Below, in pieces: positions 5,978 through 15,738 of a stretch of 64,000 nucleotides of DNA (its first letter is position 1; every line of letters starts with the position of its first letter). The notes beneath the pieces were generated by a model. It was not told the origin of the DNA, made no database searches, and saw nothing but the letters and a program-made list of their open reading frames with translations. The position numbers were made by a program, and so were the translations under genes. Origin of the DNA: Escherichia coli. Its GTDB lineage: Bacteria > Pseudomonadota > Gammaproteobacteria > Enterobacterales > Enterobacteriaceae. Where the stretch lies: assembly GCF_048403405.1 (NCBI RefSeq), contig NZ_CP183129.1; one strand, written 5' to 3'.

Positions 5978-6871
<894 letters not shown>

Positions 6872-6910
6872 TTACCTCATCAATCGCTTGTAGTTATATG
6901 TTGTGTTGTG

Positions 6911-6950
6911 AACATCTATCCATTTAGACGTCCAGATGTAAAGATGAAGG
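6911..6950 (-). promoter_or_regulatory. metF operator: tandem MetJ met boxes (aacatcta / agacgtcc / agatgtaa / agatgaag)
   Basis: Tandem 8-bp repeats close to the AGACGTCT consensus about 40-80 bp upstream of metF start. Confidence 0.7.
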
Positions 6951-7140
6951 AAAAGCCGAGGGGCGTCAACCGAAAAATGACCAATGATGGTGAGGAAAAA
7001 TCAGGGAAGTTGAAAAAAACTCATCTTAATTAGAGGCGATAAAAGATTTCTCTATAGCGCAATCCACCTCGCACGTTTTGACTGATATTCTGACAACACA
7101 GCGACACCTGGGCTTATTCGAAAAACAACGTCCTGCCACC

Positions 7141-7200
7141 GGATGGTGATGCTAAGGCATCTGATTCGGCCTGCGCCCTCGCGTAGGCCGAATACTGGAT
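7141..7200. repeat. REP-like palindromic unit (attcggcct-gcgccctcgcgt-aggccgaat)
   Basis: 9 bp perfect inverted repeat, GC-rich, intergenic. Confidence 0.4.
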
Positions 7201-7249
7201 CTGCAAAATCAACTGGTAACAAACAGATGAATCAACTCAATACGTACTT

Positions 7250-8803
7250 TTACTTGATATCTTTCACGCGCATACCGTTGATCTGTTCATCCGTGATGGT
7301 GTTACCCGCTTTGAAGTAATCAACCACGGCGTGATAAACGTAATAACCGCCCGTTGTGTTACGCGCTTTCCCTTCGGTAAAGGCGGTAAAACCATCTCCA
7401 CCATCAGCAAGGAAACTCTGAGTAGCAATGTGGTAAATCGTCGCATCTTCAATGGGTTTGCCATTCAGAGTCAGCGTGATTACCCGCTGACCAACCGGCT
7501 TACTGCTGTCGTACTTCATTTCCAGGCCTTTCGATACCTGTAAAACGCCATTACTTAAACTTGCGCCGTGTTCCATCAAACTGCGTAATTGTTTACCCGT
7601 GAGATCCATCGTCACCAGTTCGTTGGGAAACGGGAAGGTACTGATGACGCCGCCCATCGTAATCGCCCCTGCGGGGATCTCATTGCGAATGCCGCCAGAG
7701 TTGGTTAACGCCAATTGGGTGTTTTTACCCGCCGCTACCAGTAAAGCATCAGCCGCCAGGTTCCCGAGGGAAGCCGATTCACCATAGGCACGTTTTAATT
7801 CAACCGGCGATTTCGCGACCGTTTGTTGCACCACTTCATCAAGCTTTTTATTCCAGCCGTCGATCACCTGTTTTGTTTGCGGATCGGGCTTCCACTCGTC
7901 GGCGTAAATGGTTTTAAGCTCGAAGTTTTTCACCGTAAAATCATGCGGCTTCTCTTTGTAGTCGAGAACCAGTTTGCCCACATCAATCCCGCCGCTGTCA
8001 GTGGAGAGGATGAGCGTATTGCCGACTTTAATCGGTTCCGGCGTACCCACATGCGCATGTCCGGTGATCAAAATATCCAGCCCTTTCACCTGACTTGCCG
8101 TCTGAATATCTTTATCCAGCGCGCGACGCACATCTGTGCCTCCCATACTGGACTGGCGGGCCGGAACACCTTCATGGATCAGGGCGACGGTCAAATCAAC
8201 CTTGCCTTTAAGTTCATCGATATAACGTTGTAGCCATTTAATTTCATCACGCGCTTCAATCCCCACTCGCGTTGCCGCAGATACCGTGTCATTAAAGGCA
8301 AATACACCGTGCAAACCTATAACGCCTATTTTCACGCCGTCTTTTTCGATGATGGTATATGGCTTATCCCAGAATGATTTACTGCTGTTCTGATAAAAAA
8401 CATTGCCCTGCACAATAGGGAATTTTGCCTGACTCAACTGTAATAATGTGTTGTCCCAGCCGTGGTCAAATTCATGGTTGCCTATCGTGACGGCATCAAA
8501 CGGCATAGTATTCATAATATCGATAATAGCCTTACCTTTGGTCAGGCTGCTGATATATGGCCCGGTAAAATAATCACCCGCATCAAAAAACCATGTCGCT
8601 TTATTTTTTGCTTTTTCTTGCTTAACCAGCGTAGTGATATTTGCCCAGCCGCCAATATCCCGTTTACCATCAGCGATCCACGGCACTTTATAAGGCTCGA
8701 CATGCGCATGGAGGTCGTTGGTATAAATGATGGTGACATCTTTGGCGCAAGCCCAAAACGGCAGTGTTAATGCGATACCCGCAGCAAGTATTTTAATTTT
8801 CAT
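7250..8803 (-). CDS. periplasmic bifunctional metallophosphatase/5'-nucleotidase (UshA/YfkN family)
   Basis: 517 aa; signal peptide [20 protein letters not shown]; calcineurin-like motifs NDLHAH, GDYFTG, GNHEFD, GHAH; C-terminal 5'-nucleotidase-like region; RBS aaggga. Confidence 0.8.
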
Positions 8804-8935
8804 AAACAGTCCCTTTCAGTGAGATAAAGGATTGCTACATTACGTTCTGAAAGAGTTATTTATGTGAGAGTAATCACATCCACAGGGGAGCGTTGCCGGA
8901 CAAAATCAACGACCATGTGAAATCGTTGGTGATAT

Positions 8936-10066
8936 ATGTCGACTCTGTTTACGATTAATGCCTGCAAGTCGTTTGGTTGCCGTAATTTAGGGCAGCCAAC
9001 ATCTAAAGATTATAGCTGGCCCGACTATCGGCTGGGTTATCCGGCATTGCACTGTCGGGCATGTGGCAGTTACCCGCCGTTGTTTGACGAGCAACAATTT
9101 CGTGACTGGTTGTCAGTTCACTTATCTACTTTTGCAACAGAGAAAGGCCATTTTTGCCCGGTATGTTATGGCACAAAGACGATTTGTTATGGCCACAATC
9201 CACAGGGGTCGCAACGCATTCAATGTCGTAACTGCAAAAAAGTCTGGACACCTAAACAATATCAGAAAGAAATAACGCCTCCTGAAATAATCGAAACGGT
9301 TGCTCTTCTGGTGCCATTTCAGGGAGCCAGCAATGGGCAGAAACTGTATGTTTTAATCAGTTTTGATGCTCTTCGCGGTAATATTCTTCATCTTTCTACT
9401 AATTACACGCAGCATCAGGCTGGAGAAAGTCTGCATTATCGATACAGAGGGAATGCAGAACCAGAGTTACACGAGAGTAATATTGTACAACGCGTTGATA
9501 TGCGCGAAGCACAATTTCTACGCCGCAGTCAGTTTGATGAAATTCAGTATGGCAGCGCAGCGCTCAAACGCAATGCTAAAGGTGTTATTCTGCGTCCGGT
9601 TATCACTGCACACGGGCATTTCAGAGTACTGAATATTTTATTCCCTACAGTAAAAACACATGTAATTTCACACGAGTGTTTTTTAAGAGGTGCGATTATT
9701 ACGGCCTGGGCAGAACTGTTTCGCCAACAGCAAGGTGAGATTTGGTTTATTGAAGAGGAAATAGCTGACTATACCGATAATACGCCCTGGCGTTTTCAGG
9801 GAAAAACTTATCACGGCTGGTGGAAAAATCAGTGGCAACTCTGGGTTCAGGGCAAAAATCGTAAAATGGTATGTGCATTAACGGGCGGAAATATCAGCAA
9901 AGCTGAAATGCTCTCTTTAGCAACCAGCAGACATTTTATCGACTGGCTACATAAACAAGCAGTATTTACTCACAGCGCCCCGCTTTCCGCAGGGCGCGTT
10001 ACGCAAATACTGCTTTCTCTGGCTCAGGATTACAACAACTGCGCCAGGCGGTTAATATCCGACTGA
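8936..10066 (+). CDS. hypothetical Cys-rich protein with N-terminal zinc-ribbon motifs (CxxC...CxxC), function unknown
   Basis: 376 aa ORF; CRACGS, CPVCYG-x19-CRNCKK reminiscent of IS1/IS1595 transposase zinc ribbons; 3' end overlaps the metL 3' end convergently. Confidence 0.5.
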   Translation: MSTLFTINACKSFGCRNLGQPTSKDYSWPDYRLGYPALHCRACGSYPPLFDEQQFRDWLSVHLSTFATEKGHFCPVCYGTKTICYGHNPQGSQRIQCRNCKKVWTPKQYQKEITPPEIIETVALLVPFQGASNGQKLYVLISFDALRGNILHLSTNYTQHQAGESLHYRYRGNAEPELHESNIVQRVDMREAQFLRRSQFDEIQYGSAALKRNAKGVILRPVITAHGHFRVLNILFPTVKTHVISHECFLRGAIITAWAELFRQQQGEIWFIEEEIADYTDNTPWRFQGKTYHGWWKNQWQLWVQGKNRKMVCALTGGNISKAEMLSLATSRHFIDWLHKQAVFTHSAPLSAGRVTQILLSLAQDYNNCARRLISD

Positions 10067-12462
10067 ATCGCCCCTGCGGTGACGTCGCGCCCCGCGCCAG
10101 GCCCACGGATCACCAGAGGGTTATCGCGATACCAGCGGCTTTCGATGGCAAAGACGTTATCGCACGGCAGCAGTGATGCCAGCGGATGGTCTTCACGCAC
10201 CGCTTCCACGCCCACACGCGCTTTGCCATTGGCATCGAAACGCGCCACGTAGCGCAGCACCAGCCCCATTTCGCGGGCCGCTTCCAGCCGTTGCACCATC
10301 TGCTCGTTAAGTTCATCGCCGTTTTCAAAGAAATGGTCGATGCTACCACCTTCGCAATGGGCAGGCACCAGCGATTCCACGCGCACCTGATCTGGTTCGA
10401 TGTCGTAACCCGCTTCACGCGCCAGAATCACCAGCTTGCGCATCACGTCTTTGCCGGAAAGGTCATCACGCGGATCAGGCTCGGTTAAGCCCTGCTGCCA
10501 CGCCTGATCCACCAGCTCGGTAAACGGCACGCTACCGTCGAATTGCAGGAACAGCCAGGAGAGCGTGCCGGAGAAGATCCCACTGATCGACAAAATAGTA
10601 TCGCCGCTGTCGATCAGATCGCGCACGGTATGGTTGATCGGCAAGCCCGCACCGACGGTGGCGTTGTACAGCCAGTGACGCCCGGTTTTTTCGAAGGCGT
10701 CGTGGATCTGGCGATATTTATTGCTGTCGCTGGCTCCCGCCAGTTTGTTGGCGCTGATGACGTGGAAACCGTGGCTGGCAAAATCGAGATACTGATCAGC
10801 AAGCTGCTGGCTGGCGGTAACGTCCAACACCACTAAATCATCATACGGATGGGCGCGCATCCACAGGAACAGCGACTCTTCATCCTGCTCGACCGCTTCA
10901 TCGTTGAAGAAGGCTAACGCGCGGCTGGCGTCCAGCCCGTCATAACTCAACAGGCTACGGCGGCTGTCCACCACGCCTGCCAGCACAAATTCAAAGCCGG
11001 TACGCGCCGAGAGCGTGCTCTGCTCACGGGCGAACAGTTCCAGCCAGCGGGAACCGATATTGCCCTTGCCGAACAATACCAGGCCGATGCGTTTTTCTGC
11101 GCGGAAGACGGACTGATGCAGCCCCTGAATCAGGCTTTCGGTCGGTCCGGTGCGCAGTACTGCCACCAGGCTGATGCCGTCATCCGACTGCCAGGTAAAT
11201 TCGACCGGCTGGCCTTTCAGTTGCTGCCAGAAGCGGTGGCAATGCAGCGGGTTACGGGTTACGCCCGCCCCAACCATCGCCACCAGCGCCAGCCCCTGAC
11301 GCAGGCGCAGTTCGCCAGGTAATCCCGCTTCGTCGAGGATTTTCAGCGCACTGTCGGCCACTTCTGAGGTGTAGCAAAATTGCAGCAACTGGCGATCGTT
11401 ATGTACGCCAACCGCCAGTGGGCGCACCTGAGCACGTTTCAGGATCTGGTCGATCTCTTTATGCGCCAGTTTGAAATCCTGGCTGGTGGGCACCTGAAAC
11501 TCAATCAAGCAGACATCATCGTGGCTGGTGACAATACGCGCACCAGTACCGGAGGCCAGCACGCGTTCAATGCGCGTGGAACCTTGATCCGGCGTGTAGC
11601 TACAGCGCAGCTGCAGGTCAATTTCGCTGCCAGAAACCGGCTGTAAAGTACGGGCGTGAAGAACGGGAGCCGCCAGACGCGCCAGTTCGCTGGCCTCATC
11701 CAGACGCAGCAACGGCAGCAGGCAGGCATCTTTCACTTTACGCGGGTCGGCACTGTATACCCCGGCGACGTCGCTCCAGATGGTGACGCGAGAAACACCC
11801 GCCAGCGCACCGATTTGTGTCGCGGAATAGTCGGAACCGTTACGCCCCAGCAGCACCGTTTCACCGGCGTTGTTACGGCTGATAAACCCGGTCACCACCA
11901 GACGTTTGCCCGGATGTTGCACCAGTAGCTGTTGCAGCAACGGGTAAGAAAGCCCTTCATCAACCTGCGGTTGCGCAGCGCGTTCAGCGCGTAAAAACTC
12001 GCGGGCATCCAGCCAGGCCGCTGGCAGCCCTTGTTGATTAAGTACCGCAGACATCAGGCGCGCCGACCACACTTCGCCGTGGCCCACCACTTCCGCATAC
12101 ACCGCGTCGTTAATACCGCTGTCGAGCAGCGCCGCCAGGCGTTCCAGATCGCTGACAAAAGCGCTAATGAGGCTATCGGCTTCTTCGGCGGGTAACAGGC
12201 CGCTAATCAGATCGCACTGATAGCGACGCAGCGTTTGTTGAACCTGATGCGCAGAGAGACGATCGGTCTGGCTTAGTTTCAACCAGTTAATCAACTGGTT
12301 AGTGGTGCTACCGGCGGCGGAAACCACCATCATATCGTCAGGCTGAGAGTACTCCGCCATAATGCCCGCGACACGCAAATAACACTTCACATCAGCCAGA
12401 CTACTGCCACCAAATTTATGCAGTTGACGACCTTTCGCCCCTGCCTGCGCAATCACACTCAT
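10030..12462 (-). CDS. metL: bifunctional aspartokinase II / homoserine dehydrogenase II
   Basis: 810 aa; MSVIAQAGAKGRQLHKFGGSSLADVKCY... Confidence 0.95.
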   Translation of the reverse strand: MSVIAQAGAKGRQLHKFGGSSLADVKCYLRVAGIMAEYSQPDDMMVVSAAGSTTNQLINWLKLSQTDRLSAHQVQQTLRRYQCDLISGLLPAEEADSLISAFVSDLERLAALLDSGINDAVYAEVVGHGEVWSARLMSAVLNQQGLPAAWLDAREFLRAERAAQPQVDEGLSYPLLQQLLVQHPGKRLVVTGFISRNNAGETVLLGRNGSDYSATQIGALAGVSRVTIWSDVAGVYSADPRKVKDACLLPLLRLDEASELARLAAPVLHARTLQPVSGSEIDLQLRCSYTPDQGSTRIERVLASGTGARIVTSHDDVCLIEFQVPTSQDFKLAHKEIDQILKRAQVRPLAVGVHNDRQLLQFCYTSEVADSALKILDEAGLPGELRLRQGLALVAMVGAGVTRNPLHCHRFWQQLKGQPVEFTWQSDDGISLVAVLRTGPTESLIQGLHQSVFRAEKRIGLVLFGKGNIGSRWLELFAREQSTLSARTGFEFVLAGVVDSRRSLLSYDGLDASRALAFFNDEAVEQDEESLFLWMRAHPYDDLVVLDVTASQQLADQYLDFASHGFHVISANKLAGASDSNKYRQIHDAFEKTGRHWLYNATVGAGLPINHTVRDLIDSGDTILSISGIFSGTLSWLFLQFDGSVPFTELVDQAWQQGLTEPDPRDDLSGKDVMRKLVILAREAGYDIEPDQVRVESLVPAHCEGGSIDHFFENGDELNEQMVQRLEAAREMGLVLRYVARFDANGKARVGVEAVREDHPLASLLPCDNVFAIESRWYRDNPLVIRGPGAGRDVTAGAIQSDINRLAQLL

Positions 12463-15031: not shown

Positions 15032-15304
15032 ATGGTCACAGTTAACCTTCATTGTCCCCGTTGCCAGTCCGTTCAGGTTTACCGTCACGGGCAGAACCCC
15101 AAAAGACATGATCGATTCCGCGGCCGTGACTGTCACCGGGTATTTCAACTCAGTTACTGTTACGAGCCCCGTAAACCGGGAGTTAAAGACCAAATCGCTG
15201 AAATGGCTTTCAACGGTGCCGGGGTTCGCTATACTGCCCGTACGCTGAAAATCGGCATTAATACAGTCATCCGAACTTTAAAAAACTCTCGCCACGAAGA
15301 ATAA
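15032..15304 (+). CDS. insA: IS1 InsA (zinc-finger / HTH transposition inhibitor)
   Basis: 90 aa MVTVNLHCPRCQSVQVYRHGQ... aligns with IS1 InsA by eye. Confidence 0.8.
   Translation: MVTVNLHCPRCQSVQVYRHGQNPKRHDRFRGRDCHRVFQLSYCYEPRKPGVKDQIAEMAFNGAGVRYTARTLKIGINTVIRTLKNSRHEE
15280..15286 (+). promoter_or_regulatory. A6C programmed -1 ribosomal frameshift motif of IS1 (aaaaaac)
   Basis: Motif at the insA 3' end, as in canonical IS1. Confidence 0.6.
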
Positions 15305-15322
15305 CGTCATCCCCGGTCGCTC

Positions 15323-15738
15323 ATGCTGATGTGGCACTCATCTGCGAACGTAGTCAGCAATGGAGCTTTGTCGGCAGTAAAGCGCGACAGCACTGGCTCT
15401 GGTACGTGTACAACACGAAAACTGGTGGTGTTCTGGCCTACACTTTTGGCCCCCGGACTGATGAAACCTGTCGTGAACTGCTGGCGCTGCTTACCCTTTT
15501 ACCATCGGCATGTTGACCACTGACGAATGGGGTAGTTACGCTAGAGAGTTACCAAAGGAGAAGCATCTGACTGGTAAGATTTTTACTCAGCACATTGAGC
15601 GTAACAATCTGACCCTGAGAACCCGAATCAAACGTCTGGCCCGCAGAACCATCTGTTTCTCGCGTTCTGTAGAACTTCATGAAAAAGTCATCGGTGCTTT
15701 TATCGAAAATATATGTTCTACTAATTGGAGTCATCACC
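15323..15738 (+). pseudogene. insB: IS1 insB, interrupted by an additional frameshift near 15480-15510; reading frame also runs past the right IR
   Basis: InsB-like sequence split between two frames (…AYTFGPRTDETCRELLALLTLLPSAC* / …PFTIGMLTTDEWGSYARELPKEKHLTGKIFTQHIERNNLTLR…). Confidence 0.6.

Follow-up and report, generated by a model that had tools for sequence, protein, structure and literature searches.

A stretch of Escherichia coli DNA of 64,000 nucleotides (the window) carries, between metL and the gene of an UshA-like 5'-nucleotidase (5'NT), an open reading frame for a Cys-rich protein of 376 residues. This raises the question of where such a protein comes from and what it does beside a nucleotidase gene. 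The preliminary description of the locus had placed the ORF head-to-head with the 5'NT gene and in convergent overlap with metL, likened its cysteine motifs to the zinc ribbons of IS1/IS1595 transposases, guessed at a domesticated transposase and kept an annotation artefact as the alternative. The arrangement proved to be as described, with a spacer of 132 bp on one side and an overlap of exactly 37 bp on the other (Table 1).

The ORF is a real gene. It starts with ATG, its product matches an annotated CDS of E. coli GN02461 at 100% identity (WP_000105523.1, labelled as a hypothetical or cytoplasmic protein), and orthologues of 60-93% identity occur in more than ten enterobacterial genera. About 12 genera keep the full-length frame, as do relatives that are only 20-40% identical. 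Its dN/dS of 0.09-0.16, which stays at about 0.1 even where dS exceeds 1, places it under purifying selection, and the median copy number is one per genome. Truncated or frameshifted copies are found now and then, as in Salmonella arizonae (L040) and Kluyvera (L039). The single copy, the low dN/dS and the constant pairing with 5'NT described below are at odds with an artefact. Inspection of the sequence revealed no signal peptide.

Regarding the domain architecture, the cysteine motifs that had been quoted are all present (C40-R-A-C43-G-S, and C74-P-V-C77-Y-G separated by 19 residues from C97-R-N-C100-K-K), but the pair C10/C15 (CKSFGC) had been overlooked. All eight cysteines are invariant in the 15 orthologues, and each occurs in no fewer than 42 of the 51 family members. 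The residues of the first zinc site are likewise invariant in the orthologues, with C10, C15, C40 and C43 each found in at least 47 of the 51 members, and the AF2 model places a beta-hairpin at residues 26-40 within it; this additional N-terminal Cys4 ribbon is lacking in IS1 InsA. For the second ribbon, the proposed likeness to IS1/IS1595 was borne out. The NCBIfam models IS1_IS1595_Zn and transpos_IS1 match the protein within residues 74-123 (the ribbon itself at 74-105) with about 21 bits (21.3 and 21.4), below the respective cut-offs of 28 bits for the zinc ribbon and 100 bits for the IS1 equivalog, and relatives reach 29-34 bits against the zinc-ribbon cut-off. An hhalign comparison of the family with IS1 InsAB' gave a probability of 96.4% over the second ribbon and the helix-turn-helix (HTH). 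A PHROG family named 'transposase' matches residues 74-106, and PHROGs returned no phage family beyond this ribbon. C2H2 zinc-finger arrays retrieved by a profile search of PDB sequences (Aart, E 2.6e-11) were rejected as matches to the CxxC-knuckle pattern, because the zinc sites of the family consist of four Cys each and a His pair at C2H2 spacing is missing.

Table 1. Features of the ORF, the shared intergenic region and the flanking genes (window coordinates).
Feature	Position	Strand	Basis
Segment missing from island-free E. coli; 'GR 31' (metL..metF) in its short form	7024..10029	.	blastn against L015
UshA-like periplasmic bifunctional metallophosphatase/5'-nucleotidase (5'NT)	7250..8803	-	NCBIfam matches and annotation
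Divergent control region common to ORF and 5'NT, 132 bp	8804..8935	.	conservation
Candidate elements of the control region: CTTTCAG/CTGAAAG, TTACGTTC, AAATCGTTGGT	within 8804-8935		
Near-invariant block TTACGTTCTGAAAG, candidate operator or 5'-UTR hairpin	8840..8853	.	31-locus conservation
Perfect CRP-type palindrome TGTGA-N6-TCACA	8863..8878	.	motif match
Conserved CAAAATCA (candidate -10 of the ORF), then invariant AAATCGTTGGT by the ORF start	8901..8930	+	conservation
Gene for the exapted IS1-like protein, 376 aa	8936..10066	+	ORF with ATG start
Zn site 1, aa 8-48 (N8, C10, K11, C15 ... C40, C43, G44, P48)	8957..9079	+	Cys conservation
Zn ribbon 2, aa 72-106 (C74, C77, C97, C100)	9149..9253	+	homology to IS1 InsA N-terminal zinc ribbon
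Short linker, aa 107-116, replacing the ~55-aa three-helix HTH of relatives	9254..9283	+	alignments
RNase H-like (DDE-transposase fold) domain, aa 117-367	9284..10036	+	fold in structure model
Strong hairpin, candidate metBL terminator	9957..10015	-	-44.7 kcal/mol, z -6.3
Nine-residue tail NCARRLISD and stop, encoded opposite the last metL codons	10037..10066	+	homology boundary
metL, convergent with the ORF	10030-12462	-	

The HTH itself is deleted in the clade of the 376-residue protein and kept in the relatives at 20-40% identity, where its columns align to InsA 45-87. In the model of one such relative (P0142) helices at 118-125, 131-138 and 142-165 occupy the HTH position, whereas in the model of the protein studied here the strand 93-97 leads directly to the strand 118-127. 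The C-terminal part, for which the preliminary description could place no motif, indeed has none at the sequence level: Pfam gave nothing significant on the protein, no Pfam DDE family matched any of the 51 members scanned, no member matched the NCBIfam IS1 model beyond about position 82, and neither Pfam nor NCBIfam holds a model of this domain. Structure prediction did place it, as an RNase H-like domain with the fold of DDE transposases, and the modelled fold is a confident one. The domain is interrupted by a four-stranded sheet of about 45 residues (aa 268-314, containing GWWxNxW) and closes with a C-terminal helical bundle whose last conserved residues are Y366-N367. Its link to IS1 comes through the fold, because hhalign against IS1 InsB reached a probability of only 0.2 and gives no sequence-level link.

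In this domain two of the three carboxylates of the DDE triad are absent across the 51 family members. The first two catalytic Asp are replaced in the T121/V122 region, where the first beta-strand carries a conserved T/S and no conserved Asp, and at P221, a residue shared by 46 of the 51 members, with no acidic residue in positions 214-235. The third position is retained as E247, acidic in 51/51. Around it R197 (51/51), H228 (50/51), R251 (45/51) and H246 (43/51) are conserved, together with W296 and W300. The conservation of R197, H228, H246 and R251 equals that of the zinc ligands and suggests that the place of the former active site still holds a pocket with a function.

The 376-residue protein is best explained as an exapted IS1-superfamily transposase that is no longer mobile, with an IS1-like architecture in one frame and the catalytic Asp lost. 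The InsA-type ribbon homology and the fold establish the descent, and the hallmarks of mobility are gone from a single-copy orthologue that is retained under purifying selection across taxa; the earlier guess of a domesticated transposase is thus supported, with a putative host function suggested by the neighbouring genes. Compared with IS1, in which insA and insB are joined by a programmed -1 frameshift, the gene is a single uninterrupted ORF, and its product has gained the beta-sheet insertion and the long C-terminal helical bundle. Among the features of a functional IS1 transposase the zinc ribbon and the fold are present, the HTH, the DDE triad, the mobility features and the frameshift or a 100-bit score being absent. 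The ORF has a fixed, syntenic chromosomal position and no terminal inverted repeats around it, the latter, asked for as a check, fitting the loss of mobility; the sole long inverted repeat nearby lies within the 3' end of its own coding sequence. Matches to homologues on plasmids or phages (tblastn) are no evidence of mobility, because those inspected were mislabelled chromosome fragments. A possible resemblance of the conserved GGTGAT/CCAAC in the spacer to the IS1 terminal repeat was dismissed as too short to have meaning. A role in anti-phage defence finds no support either; PADLOC gave no match for it, and its neighbours are metabolic genes.

With 137 clusters at 50% identity in a set of 1.84 billion proteins the family is small, but its hosts include major pathogens (E. 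coli ExPEC lineages, Klebsiella, Citrobacter, Enterobacter, Salmonella and Vibrio). Databases mislabel its members as 'cytoplasmic protein', 'IS1 family transposase' and even 'lactate dehydrogenase', and literature searches found no characterised member, in agreement with the earlier statement that the protein fits no described family. The pairing with 5'NT, whose conservation had been proposed as a check, is strict: the divergent pair was found in 27 of 27 species-representative loci of the close clade, in two different chromosomal slots, and it spans more than ten genera of Enterobacteriaceae. The nucleotidase has a dN/dS of 0.015-0.047, and the ORF evolves 3-6 times faster. More distant relatives adjoin genes for 5'NT, Tsx, NupC, nucleoside phosphorylase (PNP) and porins, and also for acid phosphatase (AphA-like), phosphodiesterase (PDE) or sulfatase. 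In some loci, in Vibrio and Atlantibacter, the ORF is co-directional and probably co-transcribed with the enzymes. The sulfatase-associated paralogue of the Citrobacter/Atlantibacter type had no blastn match in E. coli.

In E. coli the pair lies on an island. Its short form consists of one 5'NT and the ORF (the allele of about 1200 genomes), while the long form, found in 661 of 5426 genomes, adds 5'NT-5'NT-Tsx; roughly a third of E. coli genomes carry the ORF, and K-12 strains lack it. The slot and the 5'NT genes are those of GR 31 (metL..metF) of ExPEC/APEC, for which a coordinated nucleoside degradation and transport system was proposed in a study that lists Tsx and three UshA-like ORFs and omits the 376-residue ORF (PMC12928451). 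Homology to island-free E. coli begins at the metL stop codon, and because the locus abuts this codon the ORF runs nine codons into metL. The tail encoded there varies among orthologues and is modelled with low confidence (pLDDT of about 70 for the last block); the 37-bp overlap is a by-product of the junction without a function of its own. The candidate metBL terminator lies 15 nt downstream of the metL stop, inside the ORF coding sequence.

The intergenic region common to the ORF and 5'NT is strongly conserved across 31 loci, with a mean identity of 87% in a five-genus alignment. At its centre lies the CRP-type palindrome, 65.5 bp from the ATG of the ORF and 67.5 bp from that of 5'NT. It is the only match to TGTGA-N6-TCACA in the 64 kb, where 0.08 would be expected, its TCACA half is invariant in the 31 loci, and analogous sites stand upstream of 5'NT in the loci L049 and L012 (Vibrio). 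No CytR operator was identified. The heptamer CTGAAAG (8847-8853), within the near-invariant block, forms an inverted repeat with CTTTCAG (8813-8819), which overlaps the ribosome-binding site of 5'NT, and the repeat is unique in each locus. It folds as a hairpin in the 5'NT leader of 12 genera, with a compensatory change in one of 12 pairs. Because the stem shows no covariation, a DNA role and an RNA role of this repeat cannot be told apart. A second hairpin, before the ORF start (CAACGA...TCGTTG), has a left arm with uncompensated changes, so what is conserved at this place is a sequence and not a stem. Neither hairpin can therefore be called an RNA structure. Rfam gave nothing meaningful over 8600-10200.

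We propose that the exapted transposase is a local regulator of nucleotide scavenging that would act through this region and its perfect CRP-type site, a reading in which we hold belief and doubt about equally balanced. The protein would no longer move DNA, and its sequence-specific nucleic-acid-binding module (two zinc ribbons here, zinc ribbons plus HTH in relatives) would bind the spacer. Candidate sites are CTTTCAG/CTGAAAG, around the promoter and ribosome-binding site of 5'NT, and AAATCGTTGGT, by the start of the ORF. Together with CRP at the central palindrome it would control transcription of the 5'NT gene and of its own gene, and in full-length versions of the locus the control would extend to 5'NT-5'NT-Tsx. 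The former active site in its remodelled state (R197, H228, H246, E247, R251, W296, W300) may serve oligomerisation or effector sensing. DNA binding is putative here, and the operators are candidates. Binding of InsA to the IS1 ends needs the HTH, and it is precisely the clade of the protein studied here that has lost it, so that DNA binding would have to rely on the two zinc ribbons. Against a regulator also stand the faster evolution of the ORF relative to 5'NT and the fact that the spacer motifs do not recur in front of the remaining genes of the long island. The conserved blocks might just as well be recognised by CRP, CytR or other host factors, or be parts of promoters and ribosome-binding sites, and the co-directional arrangements are compatible with non-regulatory roles.

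Other explanations must be weighed against such a regulator. The protein might bind the leader RNA of 5'NT, where a conserved CCUUUCAG...CUGAAAGG hairpin would sequester the Shine-Dalgarno sequence, and control translation or stability and not transcription. RNase H-like folds and zinc ribbons often bind RNA, the loss of the HTH is easier to accept with a ligand other than DNA, and the conserved inverted repeat has its 3' arm over the ribosome-binding site. We nevertheless consider an RNA target unlikely, given the lack of covariation in the stem, the HTH of DNA type retained in relatives, and an upstream arm that, judged by the spacing, would fall outside the transcript if the 5'NT promoter is of the class II CRP type. 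The strict one-to-one adjacency could instead reflect a cytoplasmic protein that binds the hydrolase and, as an inhibitor or holding factor, prevents the 5'-nucleotidase from being active until it is exported; the lack of a signal peptide, the database label and the probably co-transcribed arrangements point the same way, and the intracellular inhibitor of E. coli UshA, classical in the literature of the 1960s and genetically unassigned, offers an analogy. However, the K-12 strains reported to have that inhibitor are without the gene, and the architecture descends from a nucleic-acid-binding protein. Because the enzymes and transporters encoded next to relatives are unrelated to one another (sulfatase, AphA-like phosphatase, PDE, PNP, NupC, porin), a regulator fits better than a specific inhibitor, and the partner role appears quite unlikely.

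The conservation of H228, H246, R197 and R251 at the level of the zinc ligands, with an acidic residue at 247 throughout, might also mean that a remodelled His/Glu site (H228, H246, E247) is still catalytic, in a site-specific nuclease or recombinase acting at the locus or in a nuclease for nucleotide salvage. Two-metal catalysis by an RNase H fold is not expected without the two Asp, no repeats flank the gene, and the orientation and sequence of the spacer are fixed in all 31 loci, which thus show no trace of inversion or excision; we judge this very unlikely. That the ORF has no function, as the remains of a decaying IS or as an artefact of annotation, is scarcely credible. The transposase matches are weak and sub-threshold, the ORF evolves faster than its neighbour, damaged copies occur and about two thirds of E. 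coli genomes lack it, but the selection maintained at high divergence, the full-length frame in distant relatives, the confident fold and the invariant zinc ligands all speak against decay.

A local regulator derived from a transposase would have precedents. Eukaryotes offer well-documented cases of transposases exapted into regulators, and SETMAR/Metnase and FHY3/FAR1 are domesticated DDE transposases of eukaryotes acting as DNA-binding or transcription factors; the case described here differs in being bacterial, of the IS1 lineage and tied to one neighbouring gene, with a putative function. In prokaryotes, TldR proteins are TnpB-derived RNA-guided transcription factors, transposon proteins turned host regulators (bioRxiv 10.1101/2023.11.30.569447). 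The protein studied here resembles them as a nucleic-acid-targeting transposon protein that lost catalysis and became fixed beside its presumed target genes, and differs in its DDE/RNase H ancestry, as opposed to RuvC-type TnpB, and in having no evident guide RNA. The recruitment of mobile-element proteins in prokaryotes was reviewed in 2022 in a text that mentions neither 'DDE' nor 'IS1' (PMC8987985), and our literature searches found no description of a DDE/IS1-type exaptation into a bacterial regulator. With respect to the pathway, tsx, nupC, udp and deo are CRP/CytR-controlled nucleoside-scavenging genes of Enterobacteria and Vibrio. The genes for Tsx, NupC, nucleoside phosphorylase and nucleotidases near family members and the consensus CRP site in the spacer recall that regulon, although the putative local regulator is not of the LacI/CytR type. 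A wider possibility, which we raise tentatively and lean against, is that a bacterial IS1-type DDE family was exapted wholesale into local transcription factors, the dead site being rebuilt as a sensor of nucleotides, nucleosides or metal that would switch periplasmic modules for the scavenging of nucleotides, nucleosides and esters on and off together with CRP in Enterobacterales and Vibrionales.

Annotation pipelines should not count the genes of this family as IS1 copies. If the protein is a true regulator, it would provide a handle on the accessory UshA-like nucleotidase/Tsx scavenging system carried by about one third of E. coli genomes, a module recently flagged in invasive APEC/ExPEC strains (PMC12928451), and it would offer a tractable model of how the end-binding module of a transposase may become a promoter-binding module.

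The stretch is E. coli chromosome, with 100% identity to strain GN02461 over the query and the gene order yijE-katG-metF-[5'-nucleotidase]-[ORF]-metL-metB-metJ. The ORF is the RefSeq annotated CDS WP_000105523.1, named 'hypothetical protein' ('cytoplasmic protein' in other databases). The preliminary description had reported several CxxC pairs (C40RAC43GS; C74PVC77YG and, 19 residues further, C97RNC100KK), a convergent overlap with the 3' end of metL and a head-to-head arrangement with the UshA-like 5'-nucleotidase gene (5'NT); all are present, so this observation is confirmed as written. An annotation artefact, also considered there, is ruled out by orthologues in many genera and by a dN/dS of 0.09-0.16 against ten orthologues, even at dS > 1 (Nei-Gojobori): the ORF is a real gene. 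Its DNA is present in 1874 of 5426 complete E. coli genomes (median one copy per genome), and full-length homologues, 60-93% identical, were found in Escherichia, Pseudocitrobacter, Citrobacter, Klebsiella, Enterobacter, Kluyvera, Kosakonia, Phytobacter, Pluralibacter, Silvania, Superficieibacter, Rahnella and Salmonella. When 1.84 billion representative proteins were searched exhaustively with a profile, only 137 clusters of the family came up, and all sampled members are from Gammaproteobacteria (Enterobacterales, Vibrio, Photobacterium, Thaumasiovibrio, Celerinatantimonas). Public names of the members vary ('cytoplasmic protein', 'IS1 family transposase', 'InsA N-terminal domain-containing protein'); Photobacterium and Vibrio members are labelled 'lactate dehydrogenase', a name without support in any result.

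Coordinates of features in and around the ORF-5'NT pair
Feature	Window position	Strand	Remark
ORF	8936-10066	+	ATG start, 376 aa (ORF listing)
5'-nucleotidase	7250-8803	-	head-to-head with ORF over 132 bp
metL	10030-12462	-	convergent with ORF, overlap 37 bp
TGTGA-N6-TCACA palindrome	8863-8878		unique in the 64 kb, 0.08 expected
Segment missing from island-free E. coli L015	7024-10029		homology restarts precisely at the metL stop codon
Inverted repeat, 27-nt arms	9957-10015	-	within the ORF 3' coding region
IS1H copy, frameshifted	~15032-15724		beyond yiiX, with an RHS-element ORF (locus L001 12229-12921)

A further Cys pair, C10/C15, absent from the earlier list, forms a first Cys4 site together with C40/C43. 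None of the eight Cys varies among 15 aligned orthologues, and each is found in at least 42 of the 51 wider-family members. As to the proposed likeness to IS1/IS1595 zinc ribbons, the only NCBIfam matches of the ORF protein, at residues 74-105, stay with 21 bits below the cut-offs of these models (28 and 100 bits); several relatives pass the IS1_IS1595_Zn cut-off, and 6/51 members have a significant Pfam Zn_ribbon_InsA match. When the 51-sequence family alignment was compared with IS1 InsAB' using hhalign, InsA residues 4-87, that is the zinc ribbon and the helix-turn-helix (HTH), were matched with a probability of 96.4% and an E-value of 1e-9. Most members, including relatives 28-40% identical to the ORF protein, carry between the zinc ribbon and the C-terminal domain a segment of about 55 residues that aligns with the InsA HTH, and the alignments show this segment cleanly deleted in the ORF protein and its close orthologues. 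The Salmonella Give relative P0142, as modelled with AlphaFold (pLDDT 91.5), has helices 118-125, 131-138 and 142-165 in the HTH place; in the model of the ORF protein, strand 93-97 runs nearly directly into strand 118-127.

The remaining 260 or so residues, described earlier as lacking a placeable motif, gave nothing significant in Pfam, nor did any other part of the ORF protein. Structure prediction with the family alignment produced a very confident AlphaFold model (mean pLDDT 94.8, pTM 0.93), C-terminal domain included. Since this domain shows no sequence similarity to InsB (hhalign probability 0.2) and none of the 51 family members matches the Pfam DDE models, its IS1 assignment is made from the fold and the N-terminal homology. 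The modelled topology comprises beta1 (118-127), beta2 (136-144), beta3 (150-155), a helix (183-196), beta4 (217-219), a helix (221-235), beta5 (241-245) and a helix (248-257). In the RNase H fold the DDE residues lie on beta1, directly after beta4 and on the helix following beta5. Over the 51 members, position 121 is a conserved T/S and residues 119-126 hold no conserved acidic residue, P221 is found in 46/51, and every member has E or D at position 247; residues 214-235 of the ORF protein contain no acidic residue. With two of the three carboxylates absent family-wide, canonical transposition chemistry is not expected. Conserved at the level of the zinc ligands are R197 (51/51), H228 (50/51), H246 (43/51), R251 (45/51), W296 (49/50), W300 (50/51) and N367 (47/49), a pattern in the alignment that suggests a retained, repurposed site. 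In the most distant members, P0301 (620 aa; loci L047/L048), P0251 and P0211, the beta1 position still has an Asp (LATD, LASD), and P0251 has a second one (HEDY) close to the position on beta4; these proteins may resemble the ancestral, active transposase more than the others do. They come from short metagenomic contigs, where no nucleotidase neighbours were seen.

A search for flanking inverted repeats, proposed in the preliminary description, found none around the ORF, which is free of frameshifts and present once per genome. Matches of tblastn in plasmid and phage collections were considered as a sign of mobility and rejected: those inspected were mislabelled chromosome fragments sharing the order katG-metF-5'NT-ORF-metL-metB-metJ. 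Among the records filed in this way are L052 (NZ_CP039131.1), L051 (NZ_CP092913.1) and the phage-collection entries H36-H41; one of these records, labelled 'Pseudomonas sp. A2 plasmid', has an enterobacterial-type order and looks like Klebsiella DNA by its protein accessions. PADLOC gave no match for the ORF protein, and PHROGs matched only its zinc ribbon. Given the IS1H copy, the window holds a degenerate true IS1 about 5 kb from its domesticated relative.

Conservation of the pair was assessed in a one-genome-per-species scan (29 loci, genes assigned with a tblastn panel). Every locus of the close clade (27/27) has the ORF in divergent orientation to an orthologous 5'NT, with a spacer of 132-145 bp. 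The pair occupies the metF-metL slot in Escherichia, Citrobacter, Kosakonia, Phytobacter, Kluyvera, Superficieibacter, Pseudocitrobacter and Salmonella arizonae, and likewise in Klebsiella and S. enterica. A second slot, beside an arylsulfotransferase, is used in Enterobacter, Pluralibacter and Silvania, often with additional 5'NT genes and Tsx after the first 5'NT. Relatives that carry the HTH (40% and 28% identical) are still divergent from a 5'NT. Further afield, the Vibrio aquaticus member has a 5'NT directly upstream and NupC nearby, the Photobacterium member a nucleoside phosphorylase, the P0136 lineage a divergent NupC-type transporter and a nucleoside phosphorylase, the Salmonella Give member a porin, an AphA-like acid phosphatase and a class II cyclic-nucleotide phosphodiesterase, and the Atlantibacter and Citrobacter members Tsx, a sulfatase and anSME. 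What these neighbourhoods have in common is that nucleotides, nucleosides and other esters are hydrolysed in the periplasm and taken up. The 5'NT is much better conserved than the ORF (87-99% vs 60-93% amino acid identity; dN/dS 0.015-0.047 vs 0.09-0.16).

Two island alleles occur in E. coli: the short form in about 1200 genomes (≥90% identical to the window) and the long form, in which two extra 5'NT genes and Tsx follow the ORF, in 661; about 3550 have neither. The long form was reported in 2026 as 'GR 31 (metL..metF)' of APEC/ExPEC strains and proposed to be a nucleoside degradation and transport system; as listed there, GR 31 comprises only Tsx and three UshA-like ORFs, without this ORF (PMC12928451). 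In the long-form strain L002 an internal stop makes a pseudogene of the 5'NT copy that is divergent to the ORF, and the other two are intact. Family-conserved ORF sequence stops at Y366-N367, and the last nine residues (NCARRLISD), unconserved among orthologues and of low confidence in the model, are the antisense of the final metL codons. The Y366-N367 codons TAC-AAC (10030-10036) lie on the antisense of metL ...TTG-TTG-TAA, and the long form reads TAC-AAT; the short form is thus compatible with a deletion at TACAA microhomology, which the junction sequences suggest as its origin. Klebsiella has a comparable overlap (26 bp) and Citrobacter a gap of ~10-110 bp in its place; the overlap is incidental. 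On the metL strand, the inverted repeat within the ORF folds into a hairpin of -44.7 kcal/mol (z -6.3) that starts 15 nt past the metL stop, making it a candidate metBL terminator inside a convergent gene; its pairing is poorer in orthologues away from metL. The two alleles are mosaic (window 6869-10066 vs L002 4066-7260), with 93-98% identity over the 5'NT, spacer and zinc-ribbon part, 72-80% from ~nt 9270 (linker, HTH-loss site) and 56% at the tail. The drop suggests that the alleles recombined at a breakpoint separating the N-terminal module from the RNase H-like domain. In L015 the metF-metL slot (2307-2500, ~194 bp) holds an annotated hypothetical ORF of only 45 aa and the REP-like palindromic sequence GCCGGATACGGCGTAAACGCTTCATCCGGCC.

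The spacer between ORF and 5'NT is conserved far above the ORF (mean identity 87% in a five-genus alignment), and entire blocks are invariant across 31 loci: CCTTTCAG at the 5'NT ribosome-binding site, TTACGTTCTGAAAG, CAAAATCA, AAATCGTTGGT and the TCACA half of the palindrome. The palindrome, which fits the CRP consensus core, is nearly midway between the two start codons, a spacing with which class II CRP promoters for either gene would be compatible, and CRP-type sites also lie upstream of the 5'NT in L049 and the Vibrio locus L012. The other blocks, found nowhere else in each locus examined, are candidate operators.

IS1 InsA is a repressor that binds IS1 ends, and it is this module to which the N-terminal part of the ORF protein is homologous. 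We give about even weight to the ORF protein being a putative local regulator of the adjacent 5'NT and of itself, which would bind the conserved spacer via its zinc ribbons (with the HTH in relatives) and act together with CRP on both genes. The main weakness of this reading is that the HTH is absent in exactly the ORF's clade. The CTTTCAG/CTGAAAG repeat could alternatively pair in the leader as a hairpin masking the 5'NT Shine-Dalgarno sequence, and because no covariation was found in this hairpin, the repeat fits a DNA role and an RNA role alike. Regulation at the RNA level is an unlikely alternative. Slightly less likely is a cytoplasmic protein that inhibits or holds the hydrolase encoded by the constantly paired 5'NT. 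A remodelled His/Glu nuclease, to be read beside the conserved H228 and acidic position 247 and the two lost carboxylates, is slightly more doubtful again, and a relic without function, set against the dN/dS of the ORF, is very improbable.

No paper characterising any member of the family was found in the literature, and a 2022 review on mobile-element recruitment in prokaryotes does not mention exaptation of either DDE or IS1 (PMC8987985). The earlier suggestion of a domesticated, transposase-derived protein agrees with the InsA homology, the lost catalytic residues, the immobility and the selection described here. The ORF very probably encodes a homologue of IS1-type transposases that is catalytically degenerate and immobile, is maintained by selection and stays locked to a gene for nucleotide scavenging.
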